Below the pieces are notes generated by a model. It was not told the origin of the DNA, did not search any database, and saw only the letters and a program-made list of their open reading frames with translations. From Escherichia coli O157:H7 (GTDB taxonomy: Bacteria; Pseudomonadota; Gammaproteobacteria; Enterobacterales; Enterobacteriaceae): DNA of 64,000 bases. The stretch lies in the NCBI RefSeq assembly GCF_013167455.1, contig NZ_CP038328.1; one strand, written 5' to 3'. Positions 11,866-45,446 of the stretch are shown here, piece by piece. Every line of letters starts with the position of its first letter. Position 1 is the stretch's first letter. The translations under genes and the position numbers were made by a program.

Positions 11866-14800
11866 TTAATCAAACAGTGATTCAATGTCGTTAATCAGCT
11901 CGCTGGCGGTGATGTCGTCGAGCATGGAGAAAGTGAGTGAGGATTGTTTACCGTAGCGATCATCTGGCGAGGTGATTTTTACGCTTTCAACCGGGTGCTG
12001 GTCGCCATACCCCGTTTCACCATAAATTAATGAAAAAGGTTCCGTTTCAAGTTCGAGATCGCCATGAGGGGTTGTTTTGCGCATCGCATAAACGCTGCCG
12101 CTTTCTTCCAGACGTTGCCAGCCTCTGCGTTCCAGCCCGACAATGCGTCCGGCCTGGCAAAGCCGTCCTTGCCAGCGTGTCAGTTCGTGAGTATTACGTT
12201 CATTATCAGCAAGGTGATAGCTACCTCGCTCGAGCTGTTGGAAAGGGGGAAGCAGTTCGTAATCAGCGTAAATTTGCCTGAATGCAGCGGCGGATTCAGG
12301 GGATATTTCCAGCACATGCGGAATACCGATGTTTCCTGCTGGCAGCGTGAATAACTCATCCTGCGCATCGCTGTAAGTGCTGTCTTCTGCCACGCGAAAA
12401 CAGGTGATAAGGGCGTTTTCATCGTTATAAACCCCCCATAACAGCCGTCGGGTTAAGTGACGTACCAGCGGATGCTCCACCAGAAACAGGCGGAACTGCT
12501 CTGCCGTCCAGCGTCTGCGCTGGCACATAGCCTGTTCCAGACGATCAATCTGCTGGCTGGCTATGGCGCGTACATCTTTTTTCAACTGTTTGAAGAGATT
12601 AACCGCGTCAGTTGCCTGAGTTTTTTCATCGCTCTGGTTTGGCTTAGGTAAATCTTTCAGGACTTTGCCGTTTGCATCGCACACTACAGGTTTTAAGGTT
12701 TCGTCAAAACCAACGGTGAATTTGCGGGGGCCGAAATCCAGTATCAGCGAGCCACTGCTATCAAGCCCTAAATCTGGAGCCAGGCGGTCTTCCAGTTCAG
12801 CCATAGTCAGCCCACGGTTTTCAGCAACTATGTTGATTTTCTCGCGGGCATGTTCCTGTAATGCTTTGAATTTAATTTTTCGCGCGATGCCATTAAGCAG
12901 CATTAGCGCAACATCGCTGCCAATATCAGCTAATACATCCAGCCCGGACACCGCCCGTTTATGCTGGGATTCCCCAGGCCAGGCGCGGATAAGCGGGGTT
13001 AATTTACGCGCGGTGTCGTCATTGCCTAAAATCCCAAGCGAAGTAAATGCCCAGTTTTCTTTTGCGGGTGCGCCAGCTTCTGTCCAGGCGGGATACAGAT
13101 CCCAGCCAAATTCAGCCAGTGATTCGCGGGTGAAGATTTCTCTAATGATATCCAGCCCAGCGTAGGCGGTAATGTCGCGAGGAAAGCTCAGCATAGTGCC
13201 GAGGTGGCGCATAGCGTCATCTGACAGAGGCAGGTTGTTACTTTTAAGCCGTGGTCTGCGCCACAAGGTGAACTGATAAAAGCCGGGCAGTGGGGCGATT
13301 TTAGCGGGATATTCTTCCAGTGGGTCGCTATCGAACAATGTTGCCAGCGCAGCTAAAACATCAGGTTGATTATATCCTTGCGCGATTTCCTCAATCGTTT
13401 CTCGCTGGTTTAAATTCACCAGCAGACGAAGCGCCTGGCGGGCACAATCACGATCTTTTCCTTTTTTGCCCAGGGCCACAGGAAGCAGCCCGGCGGCGGC
13501 ATGGCGTGGATAATCAGTTAGCCAGTTTCGCGCATCTTCATAAGACATTTTTTTCTGTAATTGTTGCGCCATCGGTAAGGCCAGTTCACTGACACCGAGG
13601 AAAAAGGGGAAGAAGCACAGACGTCGTGGATCACGTTGCAGGCAGGCCATAAATGCAGGTATGGCGGCGCTACCAAAAATTGCCAGAATATTTCCCTCAC
13701 CAGAGTAGTTATCTTCTTTGACTATCTGGTTAAGAAAAGAAATGGCCTGTTGACCAGGCAGGTAACAGAGGGCAATGAGATTCCAGCTTTTGTATGCATT
13801 GTTATGATAATGCACAAATTCAGCATTGAGTGCTGGAAAATCGAAGCGTAGCAGGGCATCAACGGCGCTTTGTGGCGCCGGAATTTTTTCGTATATTTTT
13901 TCTCCGCTCTCCCGCCATTTTTCAAAACCAAGATGCCACAGTATTTGTTGCTCCGGTGTAAGCGGTATTAAGTGTTTCTCCCAGCTTGCTTTTTTGATCG
14001 GCGGCAGGTCGGTAAACAATGTTTGTTTTGTCGCCTGCTGTTGGGCTATTTGCTGGAAGTGGGTGACAAGGTAAGTACGGGTCAGTTTTTTGGTAATCTC
14101 TGGAGTGACATCAGAAACAGAAGGAACTGGAAGCACTGGAAGATCAAACACAGGCGTATTTTTCTTTTTCTCTTTGGTCATCCAGGGCGGCGAAACAAGC
14201 AGCTCCGGCAACATATCCACAGTGGCATATTCACATTCTTCAGCGACTGACTGCGGACGACATTCAGATAAGATGCCTGCCGCTTTAGCATTAACCCAGG
14301 GAATGACGTCGCATACTAACTCTGGCGTGGCGGTAATCAGTTTGACAAGCGCTTTACGCCACTCTTTATCTTCATGTATTGCCAGCAAAGTAGCATAAGC
14401 CGCAATAGCCGCAGCGGGATGCTTTTGACTGGCCTTGCTTAAGTATTCCAGGTGCTTTTTCTTACCAATTACACCGAGGATCAGAATTTGAATCGCATCC
14501 GGGTGATTCGTTTTCCATAGCCATTTGACAAGATTTTCAGTCTCGCTGATGCGTTCGAAGAGATAAGTGGGATTGTCAGAATGGTCTTCCGTAAACTCAA
14601 GAAGTATCCGGCTTACACCGCGCACCCCATTATTTGCCAACAACATTGCCAGATAAGCGCGAAAATTACGAAAATCACGATACAACGGTGGGAAGTCGTA
14701 TTTTTCCACTGTACTCAGAGCAGTATCATCGGTTATCACCAGTCTTAACCAGGTCATCGCCGGGACGTTTTGGTCTGCATAGCGTAGATCTATAGCATGG

Positions 14801-36884: not shown

Positions 36885-37000
36885 GTAGGACGGATAAGGC
36901 GTTTACGCCGCATCCGGCAACCTATGCCTGATGCGACGCTGAAGCGTCTTATCATGCCTACGCAGCGCTGCCACATATGTTTACGCCGCATCCTGCATAA
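36885..37000. repeat. REP/BIME cluster downstream of fbaB
   Basis: Imperfect palindromes of the gccggatgcggcgtaaacgccttatcc type (ggataaggcgtttacgccgcatccggca; gcctgatgcgacgctgaagcgtcttatcatgcctac). Confidence 0.6.
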
Positions 37001-37020: not shown

Positions 37021-37048
37021 GGCTTCCCTCCGGGAGGCCGTTTTTTTT
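37021..37048 (+). terminator. Intrinsic terminator after fbaB
   Basis: ggcttccctccgggaggcc hairpin followed by T8. Confidence 0.65.
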
Positions 37049-37110
37049 GCCTTTCATTCCTCTATTAATTTTCATATTGTCGTTTTTGTGATCGTTATCT
37101 CGACATTTAA

Positions 37111-39310
<2,200 letters not shown>

Positions 39311-39319
39311 GGACGGTAT

Positions 39320-39772
39320 ATGACTAACCTGTTTGTTCGTAGCGGAATTTCTTTTGTCGATCGTAGCGAAGTTTTAACCCATATCGGTAATGAGATGCTC
39401 GCCAAAGGTGTGGTTCATGATACCTGGCCACAGGCATTAATTGCCAGAGAAGCAGAATTCCCTACCGGGATAATGCTTGAGCAGCACGCCATTGCAATAC
39501 CGCATTGTGAGGCGATTCATGCTAAGTCGTCAGCCATTTATCTGTTAAGGCCAACAAATAAAGTTCATTTTCAGCAAGCGGATGATGATAATGACGTGGC
39601 GGTATCGTTGGTTATTGCGTTGATTGTGGAAAATCCGCAGCAGCAATTGAAACTTTTACGCTGTTTATTTGGCAAGTTACAACAGCCCGATATCGTTGAG
39701 ACACTAATCACTCTTCCTGAAACTCAGTTAAAGGAATACTTCACAAAGTATGTTTTAGATTCAGACGAATAA
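39320..39772 (+). CDS. gatA: Galactitol PTS enzyme IIA
   Basis: 150-aa ORF in gat operon order. Confidence 0.9.
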   Translation: MTNLFVRSGISFVDRSEVLTHIGNEMLAKGVVHDTWPQALIAREAEFPTGIMLEQHAIAIPHCEAIHAKSSAIYLLRPTNKVHFQQADDDNDVAVSLVIALIVENPQQQLKLLRCLFGKLQQPDIVETLITLPETQLKEYFTKYVLDSDE

Positions 39773-39802
39773 ATCCCTCTGTAACAATAAAAAGGACTAT
39801 TT

Positions 39803-40087
39803 ATGAAACGCAAGATTATTGTCGCTTGCGGAGGCGCGGTTGCGACCTCTACGATGGCGGCGGAAGAAATTAAAGAGTTGTGTCAGAGTCATAATATTCC
39901 TGTTGAATTAATCCAGTGTCGGGTTAATGAAATAGAAACCTATATGGATGGCGTGCATTTGATATGCACCACTGCCAGGGTGGATCGTAGTTTTGGCGAT
40001 ATTCCGTTAGTTCACGGCATGCCTTTTGTTTCTGGTGTCGGTATCGAAGCATTACAAAATAAAATTCTGACTATCTTACAGGGGTGA
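39803..40087 (+). CDS. gatB: Galactitol PTS enzyme IIB
   Basis: 94-aa ORF with N-terminal Cys ([11 protein letters not shown]). Confidence 0.9.
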
Positions 40088-40090
40088 CCT

Positions 40091-41446
40091 ATGTTTTCAG
40101 AAGTCATGCGTTATATTCTCGATCTCGGCCCTACGGTGATGTTGCCGATTGTCATCATTATTTTTTCTAAAATTTTAGGCATGAAGGCAGGCGATTGCTT
40201 TAAAGCGGGTCTGCATATCGGGATTGGCTTTGTTGGCATTGGCCTTGTGATTGGCTTAATGCTGGATTCCATTGGCCCGGCGGCGAAAGCGATGGCGGAA
40301 AATTTCGACCTGAATCTGCATGTGGTCGATGTCGGCTGGCCGGGCTCTTCACCAATGACCTGGGCGTCGCAAATTGCGCTGGTGGCGATTCCGATTGCGA
40401 TTCTGGTTAACGTGGCGATGTTACTGACCCGTATGACGCGGGTGGTAAATGTTGATATCTGGAATATCTGGCATATGACCTTCACCGGCGCGTTGCTGCA
40501 TCTGGCAACCGGTTCATGGATGATAGGGATGGCAGGTGTGGTAATTCACGCGGCGTTTGTTTATAAGCTCGGCGACTGGTTTGCCCGCGATACCCGAAAT
40601 TTCTTTGAGCTGGAAGGCATTGCTATTCCGCACGGTACGTCGGCGTATATGGGGCCGATTGCGGTGCTGGTCGATGCTATCATCGAGAAAATCCCAGGCG
40701 TTAACCGTATTAAATTTAGCGCCGACGATATTCAGCGCAAATTTGGCCCGTTTGGCGAGCCTGTCACCGTGGGTTTTGTGATGGGGCTGATTATCGGCAT
40801 CCTCGCGGGTTACGATGTCAAAGGTGTATTGCAGCTGGCGGTAAAAACGGCGGCGGTGATGCTGCTAATGCCACGGGTGATTAAACCCATCATGGATGGT
40901 TTAACGCCCATCGCTAAGCAGGCCCGTAGTCGTTTACAGGCGAAGTTCGGCGGTCAGGAGTTCCTGATTGGCCTGGATCCCGCATTACTGCTGGGGCATA
41001 CGGCGGTGGTATCGGCAAGCCTGATTTTTATTCCGCTCACCATTTTAATTGCTGTTTGTGTTCCTGGTAATCAGGTACTGCCGTTTGGCGATCTTGCCAC
41101 TATCGGCTTCTTCGTGGCGATGGCGGTCGCGGTGCATCGTGGAAATCTGTTCCGCACCTTAATCTCGGGTGTCATCATTATGAGCATCACCCTGTGGATC
41201 GCGACGCAAACTATTGGTTTGCACACCCAACTGGCGGCTAATGCTGGGGCGTTAAAAGCCGGGGGTATGGTGGCTTCAATGGATCAGGGCGGTTCTCCCA
41301 TTACCTGGTTACTGATTCAGGTTTTCTCCCCGCAAAATATTCCCGGTTTCATTATTATCGGCGCAATTTATCTTACCGGTATTTTCATGACCTGGCGTAG
41401 AGCGCGTGGCTTTATTAAACAAGAGAAAGTCGTTCTCGCAGAATAA
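40091..41446 (+). CDS. gatC: Galactitol PTS enzyme IIC
   Basis: 451-aa polytopic membrane protein. Confidence 0.9.
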   Translation: MFSEVMRYILDLGPTVMLPIVIIIFSKILGMKAGDCFKAGLHIGIGFVGIGLVIGLMLDSIGPAAKAMAENFDLNLHVVDVGWPGSSPMTWASQIALVAIPIAILVNVAMLLTRMTRVVNVDIWNIWHMTFTGALLHLATGSWMIGMAGVVIHAAFVYKLGDWFARDTRNFFELEGIAIPHGTSAYMGPIAVLVDAIIEKIPGVNRIKFSADDIQRKFGPFGEPVTVGFVMGLIIGILAGYDVKGVLQLAVKTAAVMLLMPRVIKPIMDGLTPIAKQARSRLQAKFGGQEFLIGLDPALLLGHTAVVSASLIFIPLTILIAVCVPGNQVLPFGDLATIGFFVAMAVAVHRGNLFRTLISGVIIMSITLWIATQTIGLHTQLAANAGALKAGGMVASMDQGGSPITWLLIQVFSPQNIPGFIIIGAIYLTGIFMTWRRARGFIKQEKVVLAE

Positions 41447-41493
41447 TTTTTACCTGAGGGGGAGGTTATCCCCCTTAACAATTAGGAGTTTTT

Positions 41494-42534
41494 ATGAAAT
41501 CAGTGGTGAATGATACTGATGGTATCGTGCGCGTTGCAGAAAGCGTCATTCCTGAAATTAAACATCAGGATGAGGTGCGGGTAAAAATTGCCAGCTCGGG
41601 CTTATGTGGTTCCGATTTACCCAGGATATTTAAAAATGGTGCACATTATTATCCAATAACGTTAGGCCATGAATTTAGCGGCTATATTGATGCGGTAGGA
41701 TCCGGTGTTGATGATTTACACCCTGGCGATGCGGTTGCCTGTGTGCCGTTATTACCCTGTTTTACTTGTCCAGAGTGTTTGAAAGGGTTTTATTCCCAGT
41801 GCGCAAAATATGATTTTATTGGCTCACGGCGTGATGGTGGATTTGCCGAATATATTGTCGTTAAGCGAAAAAATGTCTTTGCTCTACCCACGGATATGCC
41901 TATTGAGGATGGGGCTTTTATTGAGCCGATTACCGTTGGCCTGCATGCTTTTCATTTAGCGCAAGGTTGTGAGAATAAAAACGTTATTATTATTGGTGCC
42001 GGAACCATTGGCCTGCTGGCTATTCAGTGCGCTGTCGCGCTGGGAGCAAAGAGTGTGACGGCTATCGACATTAGCTCAGAAAAACTGGCACTGGCAAAAT
42101 CTTTCGGTGCGATGCAAACATTTAACAGTAGCGAAATGAGCGCGCCGCAAATGCAGAGCGTTTTACGCGAACTGCGCTTTAATCAGCTTATCCTCGAGAC
42201 GGCTGGCGTACCGCAAACTGTCGAACTGGCGGTAGAGATTGCCGGTCCTCATGCCCAACTGGCACTGGTGGGCACGTTGCATCAGGATCTGCATTTAACA
42301 TCGGCAACGTTTGGCAAAATATTGCGTAAAGAGCTGACGGTTATCGGCAGTTGGATGAACTACTCCAGCCCTTGGCCGGGGCAGGAGTGGGAAACGGCGA
42401 GCCGGTTGCTGACAGAACGTAAGTTAAGCCTGGAGCCATTAATCGCTCACCGTGGAAGCTTTGAAAGCTTCGCCCAGGCGGTGCGTGACATCGCTCGTAA
42501 TGCTATGCCGGGCAAAGTGTTGCTCATTCCCTGA
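41494..42534 (+). CDS. gatD: Galactitol-1-phosphate 5-dehydrogenase
   Basis: 346-aa Zn-dependent MDR-family dehydrogenase (GHEFSG; GAGTIGLL). Confidence 0.9.
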   Translation: MKSVVNDTDGIVRVAESVIPEIKHQDEVRVKIASSGLCGSDLPRIFKNGAHYYPITLGHEFSGYIDAVGSGVDDLHPGDAVACVPLLPCFTCPECLKGFYSQCAKYDFIGSRRDGGFAEYIVVKRKNVFALPTDMPIEDGAFIEPITVGLHAFHLAQGCENKNVIIIGAGTIGLLAIQCAVALGAKSVTAIDISSEKLALAKSFGAMQTFNSSEMSAPQMQSVLRELRFNQLILETAGVPQTVELAVEIAGPHAQLALVGTLHQDLHLTSATFGKILRKELTVIGSWMNYSSPWPGQEWETASRLLTERKLSLEPLIAHRGSFESFAQAVRDIARNAMPGKVLLIP

Positions 42535-42633
42535 AACCGCGGGCCAGCGTGATGCTGGCCCGGTATTGTGCAAAACAGATCATTCACCAATGGTCCCCCT
42601 TCGTTTACACTAGCCACAATTGAATATGGGTAA

Positions 42634-43413
42634 ATGACGATGAATTCATTCGAGCGAAGGAATAAGATCATCCAATTAGTGAATGAACAGGGAACCGTGC
42701 TTGTTCAGGATCTGGCGGGAGTATTTGCTGCCTCGGAAGCGACAATCCGTGCCGATTTGCGCTTTCTCGAACAAAAAGGCGTGGTTACGCGCTTTCATGG
42801 CGGTGCGGCGAAAATAATGTCTGGTAATAGTGAAACCGAGACCCAGGAAGTCGGGTTTAAAGAGCGATTTCAGCTTGCCAGCGCGCCAAAAAACAGAATA
42901 GCGCAGGCGGCAGTCAAAATGATCCACGAAGGGATGACCGTTATTCTCGACAGCGGAAGTACGACAATGCTTATCGCCGAAGGATTAATGACCGCCAAAA
43001 ATATCACGGTGATTACCAACAGTCTCCCGGCAGCGTTTGCCCTTTCCGAAAATAAAGACATTACTCTGGTCGTCTGTGGTGGCACGGTCCGCCATAAAAC
43101 GCGCTCGATGCATGGTTCCATTGCCGAGCGTTCATTGCAGGATATTAATGCCGATTTAATGTTTGTCGGTGCTGATGGTATTGATGCGGTTAATGGTATT
43201 ACGACCTTTAATGAAGGTTATTCGATTAGCGGGGCGATGGTCACCGCCGCAAATAAAGTGATTGCCGTTCTCGATTCATCGAAATTTAATCGTCGCGGTT
43301 TTAATCAGGTACTGCCAATCGAAAAAATTGACATTATTATTACCGATGATGCCGTGTCAGATGTGGATAAACTGGCATTGCAGAAGACACGGGTAAAATT
43401 AATTACGGTGTAG
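42634..43413 (+). CDS. gatR: DeoR-family repressor of the gat operon, apparently intact
   Basis: 259-aa uninterrupted ORF with N-terminal HTH and DeoR C-terminal domain; no IS element inside. Confidence 0.8.
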   Translation: MTMNSFERRNKIIQLVNEQGTVLVQDLAGVFAASEATIRADLRFLEQKGVVTRFHGGAAKIMSGNSETETQEVGFKERFQLASAPKNRIAQAAVKMIHEGMTVILDSGSTTMLIAEGLMTAKNITVITNSLPAAFALSENKDITLVVCGGTVRHKTRSMHGSIAERSLQDINADLMFVGADGIDAVNGITTFNEGYSISGAMVTAANKVIAVLDSSKFNRRGFNQVLPIEKIDIIITDDAVSDVDKLALQKTRVKLITV

Positions 43414-43425
43414 TATTGTTCTGTA

Positions 43426-43457
43426 TGCCGGATAAGGTGTTTACACCGCATCCGGCA
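43426..43457. repeat. REP element after gatR
   Basis: tgccggataaggtgtttacaccgcatccggca palindrome. Confidence 0.55.
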
Positions 43458-43494
43458 TTACGGATTCTCCCTGGTTCAAGAGAGAATAGTTTGA

Positions 43495-44394
43495 TTAACG
43501 CAATAATGGACAATCTGGTGGTAATCGACAACGCAACGCCGCCGGAAGTATTTCAATATGGAAGTTTTGCCCACTCAACGGTTCGCCATCAAGATTAAAA
43601 GTGATTTCGTGTGGGGCTTGTATATCAAACCACGACGAAGCGCCTTCGATAATATTCGGGTTATCTTCGTCAGATTTTAAGGTTGATACGAGAGCCGGAA
43701 GAATTTCATCGCCGGTAAAAATGCGCAGTTGCAGCAAGCCATCGTTAATTAACGCGTTCGGGCACAATTGTTGACCGCCACCGGCCTGACGCCCGTTACC
43801 AATACCAATGACCAGGGCGTCACCTTGCCAGTGAAAGTTTTCACCGCGGATTTCACAACGGTCCGGTTGCAGAGTATCCATGCGCATTAAGCCATGAATG
43901 ATGTAAGAGACGCCACCCAGCGCGGCTTTTAATTTTTCCGGCGTTTCTGTGGTAATACGCGTCCCAAATCCGCCTGTCGCCATATTAATAAAACAGGTTT
44001 GTTTGTTGACCTGCGCCATATCTATCGCAATGGCGTTACCGGCAATTGCCAGTTTCAGCGCCTTATCCAGTGCCTCAGGAATCCCTACACTGGTGGCAAA
44101 ATCATTGGCGGTTCCTAATGGCAAAATTCCCAGCGCGGGTATGTCATCCCCCTCACACTGAATCAACGCCGTAGAAACTTCATTAATGGTGCCATCGCCA
44201 CCACCGGCAATCACCGTTGCGACGCCCAACTTCCGGGCCTCCTCTACATATCGTGCGGCATCGCCTTTCTCCCAGGTGACCCGCACATGGATCGTCATTC
44301 CTTCCTCACGCAACAGCATAATTGCTTCGCGCAAGGGTAGATTGTCAGTACTTTTGCCATTAAGAATCAGTAAGCTGGCGGGAAATTCTGCCAT
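43495..44394 (-). CDS. yegS: Lipid kinase YegS (DAGK-like)
   Basis: 299-aa ORF with GGDGT motif. Confidence 0.85.
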
Positions 44395-45274: not shown

Positions 45275-45362
45275 TAAAAAATAAGCCCGTGTAAGGGAGA
45301 TTACACAGGCTAAGGAGGTGGTTCCTGGTACAGCTAGCATTTTATGGGTTATGTTTTTCAGC
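45275..45362 (-). ncRNA. cyaR: CyaR (RyeE) Hfq-dependent sRNA
   Basis: Minus strand reads GCUGAAAAACAUAACCCAUAAAAUGCUAGCUGUACCAGGAACCACCUCCUUAGCCUGUGUAAUCUCCCUUACACGGGCUUAUUUUUU, matching CyaR as I recall it, including the terminator hairpin and U-run. Confidence 0.75.
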
Positions 45363-45446
45363 GAAACGGATGATAACCTTAATAAATGCAGCTGTATGTG
45401 ATCGGTTTCTAAGAATTTTCCATCCGGGAAAAATAATCGAAATTAA

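Follow-up and report, generated by a model that had tools for sequence, protein, structure and literature searches.

The window, a stretch of 64,000 nt from Escherichia coli O157:H7 (GCF_013167455.1, contig NZ_CP038328.1), contains an uninterrupted gatR which, judging from its sequence, is very probably the wild-type, functional gene of this strain. The ORF listing of the window gives a single 259-aa ORF on the plus strand (42634..43413), starting with ATG and having zero internal stops. It follows gatYZABCD directly and has gatD and yegS as its neighbours, which is the position expected of GatR. The initial annotation had described a DeoR-type repressor gene following gatYZABCD, with a clean frame of 259 codons and no IS element. 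All of this holds: six intact genes precede gatR on the same strand, and Pfam matches to HTH_DeoR and DeoRC confirm the type of repressor. The only refinement concerns length, as the 259 codons are those of the maximal ORF and the RefSeq gene encodes 257 aa.

Reading frame and genomic context of gatR

The coding sequence and its immediate flanks comprise the following features.

42535..42639, plus strand: gatD-gatR intergenic region, presumably with a weak gatR promoter, 100% identical to K-12
42540-42562: G+C-rich hairpin CGGGCCAGC-GTGAT-GCTGGCCCG, lacking a T-run, in the gatD-gatR spacer
42640..43413, plus strand: gatR CDS with the RefSeq start (taken from an O157:H7 record of identical sequence), 257 aa plus stop codon, 774 nt (WP_001303580.1)
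43427..43456, no strand assigned: REP-like palindrome between gatR and the convergent yegS, 100% identical to K-12

The maximal ORF opens at 42634, two codons before the RefSeq start, which is the second in-frame ATG (42640). The distance from a GGG to the ATG is 9 nt for the start at 42640 and just 3 nt for the ATG at 42634. Since the RefSeq start lies at 42640, 9 nt past the GGG, the 259 codons describe the maximal ORF and not the annotated gene, and the accepted length of GatR is 257 aa.

The gene order fbaB-gatYZABCD-gatR-yegS is the same in K-12 and HS, with fbaB upstream of gatY and yegS lying 3' of gatR in convergent orientation. Over 961 bp around gatR, many O157:H7 genomes match the window at 100% identity, and most other E. 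coli do so at 95-99%. The spacer between gatR and yegS (43414-43494) is 100% identical to K-12. A scan for consensus promoters and terminators over 42400-43600 revealed neither a sigma-70 site between gatD and gatR nor an intrinsic terminator.

Elsewhere in the window, the CyaR (RyeE) sRNA gene was found between yegQ/trhP and yegR (45279-45364, minus strand; Rfam, 100.7 bits). In K-12, cyaR has beside it the PR-X cryptic-prophage remnant (ogrK, yegZ), which is missing from the window. In a comparison with O157:H7 strain PV15-279, the window proved collinear at 99.3-99.8% identity, save for an IS1203 present only in PV15-279. At 11866-14757 (minus strand) the window has a 963-aa ORF free of IS; in records that match the window exactly over 12900-14500, the annotation is that of a DUF4132 domain-containing protein. 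Its counterpart in PV15-279 is a pseudogene split by IS1203 and annotated as WGR-domain and DUF4132-domain fragments. O157:H7 strains are therefore polymorphic for this IS1203 insertion, and the difference is irrelevant to gatR.

Domain composition and family assignment of GatR

Two Pfam domains cover most of the protein.

42655..42813, plus strand: N-terminal DeoR-type helix-turn-helix DNA-binding domain, residues 6-58 (PF08220 HTH_DeoR, E=1.3e-16)
42886..43347, plus strand: C-terminal DeoRC effector-sensing domain, residues 83-236 (PF00455, E=2.5e-51)

The HTH_DeoR match scores 60.5 bits against a cut-off of 21, as is proper to the helix-turn-helix of the DeoR/GlpR family, and the DeoRC match, that of a sugar-phosphate sensor, scores 174 bits against a cut-off of 31.8. 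With these E-values a chance ORF is excluded. The C-terminal part also aligns by sequence with a solved structure of a DeoR C-terminal domain (7l6l), and residues 6-58 show no difference from the HS and K-12 proteins. Within the family, the protein is identified as the GatR orthologue, sharing 256 of 257 residues both with HS GatR and with K-12 GatR after exclusion of IS3E. Some sources label members of this cluster 'galactitol utilization operon repressor'.

The top NCBIfam models for this protein are AgaR (232.3 bits) and SrlR (226.1 bits). Both identities were rejected, as the scores are below the equivalog thresholds (260 and 350, respectively); such sub-cut-off scores are as expected for a distinct paralogue. 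AgaR and SrlR (GutR) are E. coli paralogues of the DeoR family that have the two-domain architecture in common with GatR, and probably also the mechanism of a repressor released by a phosphosugar. They differ from it in genomic context, which for GatR is gat and not aga or srl. Orthologues in other enterobacterial genera (Kosakonia, Enterobacter, Phytobacter and others) show approximately 71-75% identity. In Salmonella Typhimurium, GatR likewise represses gat promoters, and repression is abolished when the protein lacks its HTH (PMC7972205).

IS insertions in K-12 and BL21 and their absence in the window

The initial annotation had noted that gatR is disrupted by an IS in K-12 laboratory strains, giving constitutive gat expression. 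The annotation of NC_000913.3 and the literature (PMC5850726, PMC3446290, PMC9189660) agree with this. In NC_000913.3, gatR (b4498) is a two-piece pseudogene containing an IS3E of 1258 bp (2170171-2171428) with insE5 and insF5. The element is located after nucleotide 299 of gatR and is flanked by a 3-bp target duplication, GTC on the strand of the record and GAC on that of the gene. The constitutive gat expression of MG1655 has been ascribed to this IS in gatR (PMC5850726, PMC3446290, PMC9189660, PMC5094792); our account of the K-12 IS history draws on how MG1655 is annotated and on subsequent papers citing the original work. The MG1655 pseudogene is orthologous to the window gene and occupies the same position after gatD, the difference being that gatR in the window has no IS3E.

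A second laboratory lineage carries another insertion, an IS1 at CGATTTCA, which is independent of the IS3E event of K-12. Carriers of gatR::IS1 in the BL21 lineage include BL21(DE3), C41, C43, T7 Express, NEBExpress and others; gatR of REL606 has been reported as intact (PMC3446290). Since the two events are independent, GatR has been lost twice, by a different IS in each of two major laboratory lineages. Both sites were located in the window.

42865..42872, plus strand: IS1 insertion site of BL21-lineage gatR, CGATTTCA, unoccupied here (comparison with BL21-lineage gatR)
42936..42938, plus strand: IS3E insertion site of K-12 gatR, GAC, unoccupied here (comparison with MG1655)

With both sites empty and the gene collinear with that of HS, gatR of the window is not of the IS-disrupted laboratory type.

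Frequency of intact and interrupted gatR

From 5,426 complete genomes searched by BLAST, 5,109 have some match to gatR and 4,756 have one place covering at least 80% of it, counts that register large interruptions only, as frameshifts are missed and insertions of the size of IS1 are joined over. The K-12 IS3E::gatR junction was found in 344 of the 5,426 genomes, the matches listed being K-12 derivatives. The full IS1::gatR junction was found in 35, and here the matches listed are BL21 derivatives and one human isolate; a 36th record at coverage of at least 80% proved to be only an IS1. Almost all large interruptions thus come from two laboratory lineages, and therefore an uninterrupted gatR is the norm. 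An intact gene is already known as the usual wild-type condition, shared by nearly all E. coli from nature, and in this respect the window offers nothing new.

Disruption of gatR by IS is recurrent. In the mouse gut, the unregulated gat operon of K-12 is rapidly inactivated and strongly counter-selected, and in a gatR-restored strain fresh IS insertions arise in gatR (PMC5850726). These new insertions point to recurrence, which fits the two independent laboratory events.

Comparison with HS and reconstituted K-12 GatR

From 42640 onwards, gatR of the window is collinear with the IS-free gene of E. coli HS, differing at 11 of 774 nt. When the two K-12 fragments are joined, they also give 774 nt, and the comparison with the window again reveals 11 nt differences and one residue difference (E241D). 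After IS removal, K-12 GatR is identical to HS GatR. HS GatR agrees with the window protein in locus, in its length of 257 aa and in its two domains, and experiment has shown the HS allele to act as a repressor: Sousa et al. put HS gatR in place of the K-12 pseudogene and obtained a regulated gat operon in MG1655 (PMC5850726). An alignment to K-12 gatR had been proposed initially as a check, and it uncovers no disabling mutation, E241D being the sole amino-acid change.

43360..43362, plus strand: codon 241, GAT (Asp), the sole amino-acid difference from K-12/HS GatR (Glu), from the alignment

This residue is one basis for the reading that, with an intact frame, E241D or lineage-specific changes in the promoter and leader of gatY make repression or induction less effective and leave gat partly constitutive or poorly inducible, a reading we regard as very unlikely. 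The rarity of Asp among close relatives would favor it: 40 of the 41 representatives at identity of at least 95% have Glu and a single one has Asp, and an alignment with 15 further sequences from E. coli and Shigella shows no Asp here. Against it, the exchange of Glu for Asp is conservative, and residue 241 lies beyond the end of the DeoRC match, outside both Pfam domains. Farther away the position varies freely, since the 68 orthologue representatives below 80% identity have D (21), E (20), K (17), A (5), R (4) or Q (1), with D as the commonest residue. We therefore rejected E241D as a disabling change; where residues vary freely, a conservative substitution is implausible as a cause of inactivation.

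The gatY promoter region

The other basis for altered regulation is the presumed operator region.

37040..37164, plus strand: gatY promoter and 5' leader, presumed GatR operator region (haplotype alignment)

This region has a CRP-like TGTGATCGTTATCTCGACA and repeated TTTCAT motifs. It is more diverged than the gatR coding DNA, which has 95-99% identity to most genomes: from 4,829 genomes matching 37040-37170, 4,387 do so at 90-95% identity and 295 at 99% or more. We aligned 11 haplotypes, namely those of the window, K-12, HS, BL21, O145:H28 and six others. Among these, the window has one private SNP, a T at 37149, 16 nt before the ATG of gatY. The divergence from most genomes and the private SNP both speak for weakened regulation, as does the variable oxidation of galactitol among O157:H7 isolates (PMC4809568). 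On the other hand, most of the remaining O157 variants are at sites that are variable in the other haplotypes and common to some of them. The invariant or nearly invariant blocks, AATTTTCA(T/C)ATTGTCGTTTTTGTGATCGTTATC(T/G)CGA and ATTTCATT(A/G)T(A/G)TTTTGAAATCGAAA, are untouched in the window. The short repeats returned by a repeat search of the gatY promoter were not taken as operators.

In the spacer between fbaB and gatY there is a REP/BIME cluster (36888-36958, plus strand) with a match to Rfam naRNA4 (68.3 bits). At the 5' end of this spacer there is a 9-bp difference from K-12, and several SNPs occur in it as well.

The gat cluster lies inside a 131-kb O-antigen-associated recombination tract that distinguishes O157:H7 from O55:H7 (PMC2806823), and this tract is probably the reason for the distinct O157 haplotype of the gat region. 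One could further propose that a gat region acquired with the tract, with its lineage-restricted E241D and its diverged gatY promoter and leader (including the SNP at 37149), alters the set-point of galactitol catabolism, or how readily it is induced, compared with other E. coli, and thereby plays a part in how the strain fares in competition for galactitol in the gut of cattle or humans. We consider this very unlikely.

The gat structural genes

The six genes preceding gatR are all open in the window.

37165..42534, plus strand: gatYZABCD, all open, presumed targets of GatR repression (ORFs, RefSeq)
37165-38019, plus strand: gatY, open
38048-39310, plus strand: gatZ, open
39320-39772, plus strand: gatA, open
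39803-40087, plus strand: gatB, open
40091-41446, plus strand: gatC, open, 451 aa
41494-42534, plus strand: gatD, open

Five of the gat proteins have the same length as in K-12, with 0-5 amino-acid substitutions each. In MG1655, which besides the IS3E in gatR also carries a 2-nt frameshift in gatC, the latter is a pseudogene due to an insertion of GG about 915 nt into the gene; the window gatC has no such frameshift.

These genes bear on the possibility that GatR works while the gat pathway is unused, a silent defect elsewhere (substitutions in GatZ, GatY or GatB, or the host background) making regulation irrelevant. The substitutions relative to K-12 (5 in GatZ, 4 in GatB and 2 in GatY) are what might suggest such a defect. 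It is nevertheless the least likely of the readings considered here: no gat gene is closed, the RefSeq protein accessions of O157:H7 GatA and GatC are those of HS, and GatD, with 0 substitutions relative to K-12, has an accession also found in a BL21 derivative. Furthermore, oxidation of galactitol by O157:H7 isolates has been observed in Biolog plates (PMC4809568), which argues for a pathway in use. In the same study, oxidation varied approximately 3-fold among O157:H7 isolates whose gat sequences were identical, which indicates that factors outside the gat locus also modulate expression.

Regulation of galactitol catabolism

We can soundly infer that regulated galactitol catabolism is probably retained in this strain, as the initial annotation had supposed, since gatR is uninterrupted, free of disabling mutations and similar to that of HS. 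Repressors of the DeoR family bind through their HTH to operators at target promoters, and a phosphorylated intermediate of the pathway triggers release by acting on the DeoRC domain. Galactitol is converted by GatABC to galactitol-1-phosphate and by GatD to tagatose-6-phosphate, which is phosphorylated to tagatose-1,6-bisphosphate and cleaved by GatYZ. Following this pattern, the HTH of GatR would bind operator DNA at the gatY promoter and keep gatYZABCD off. Galactitol would be imported and phosphorylated by the GatABC phosphotransferase system, and a phosphorylated intermediate would then bind the DeoRC domain, GatR leaving the DNA and the gat operon being induced. CRP-cAMP would provide catabolite control of the operon. 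Repression by GatR in this strain and the operator positions are thus putative, deduced from the genome sequence, as is the identity of the inducer, which comes from knowledge of the DeoR family.

A literature search returned no measurement of gatYZABCD expression in O157:H7 with versus without galactitol. Genes named as 'galactitol PTS' (Z4875-Z4877) have been reported as induced in bovine gut contents (PMC6199705); they were set aside, as these tags come from elsewhere in EDL933 and are not identified as gatABC. That study makes no mention of gatR.

The gat locus of the window appears to be of the normal, regulated type, a correct annotation-level point of low importance, and constitutive gat expression in K-12 is a laboratory peculiarity. 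Galactitol is described as a contested gut carbon source in papers cited in PMC11445065. Because of this contest, and of the counter-selection of the unregulated K-12 operon in mice, Gat phenotypes of K-12 or BL21 should not be transferred to O157:H7 or to wild strains.
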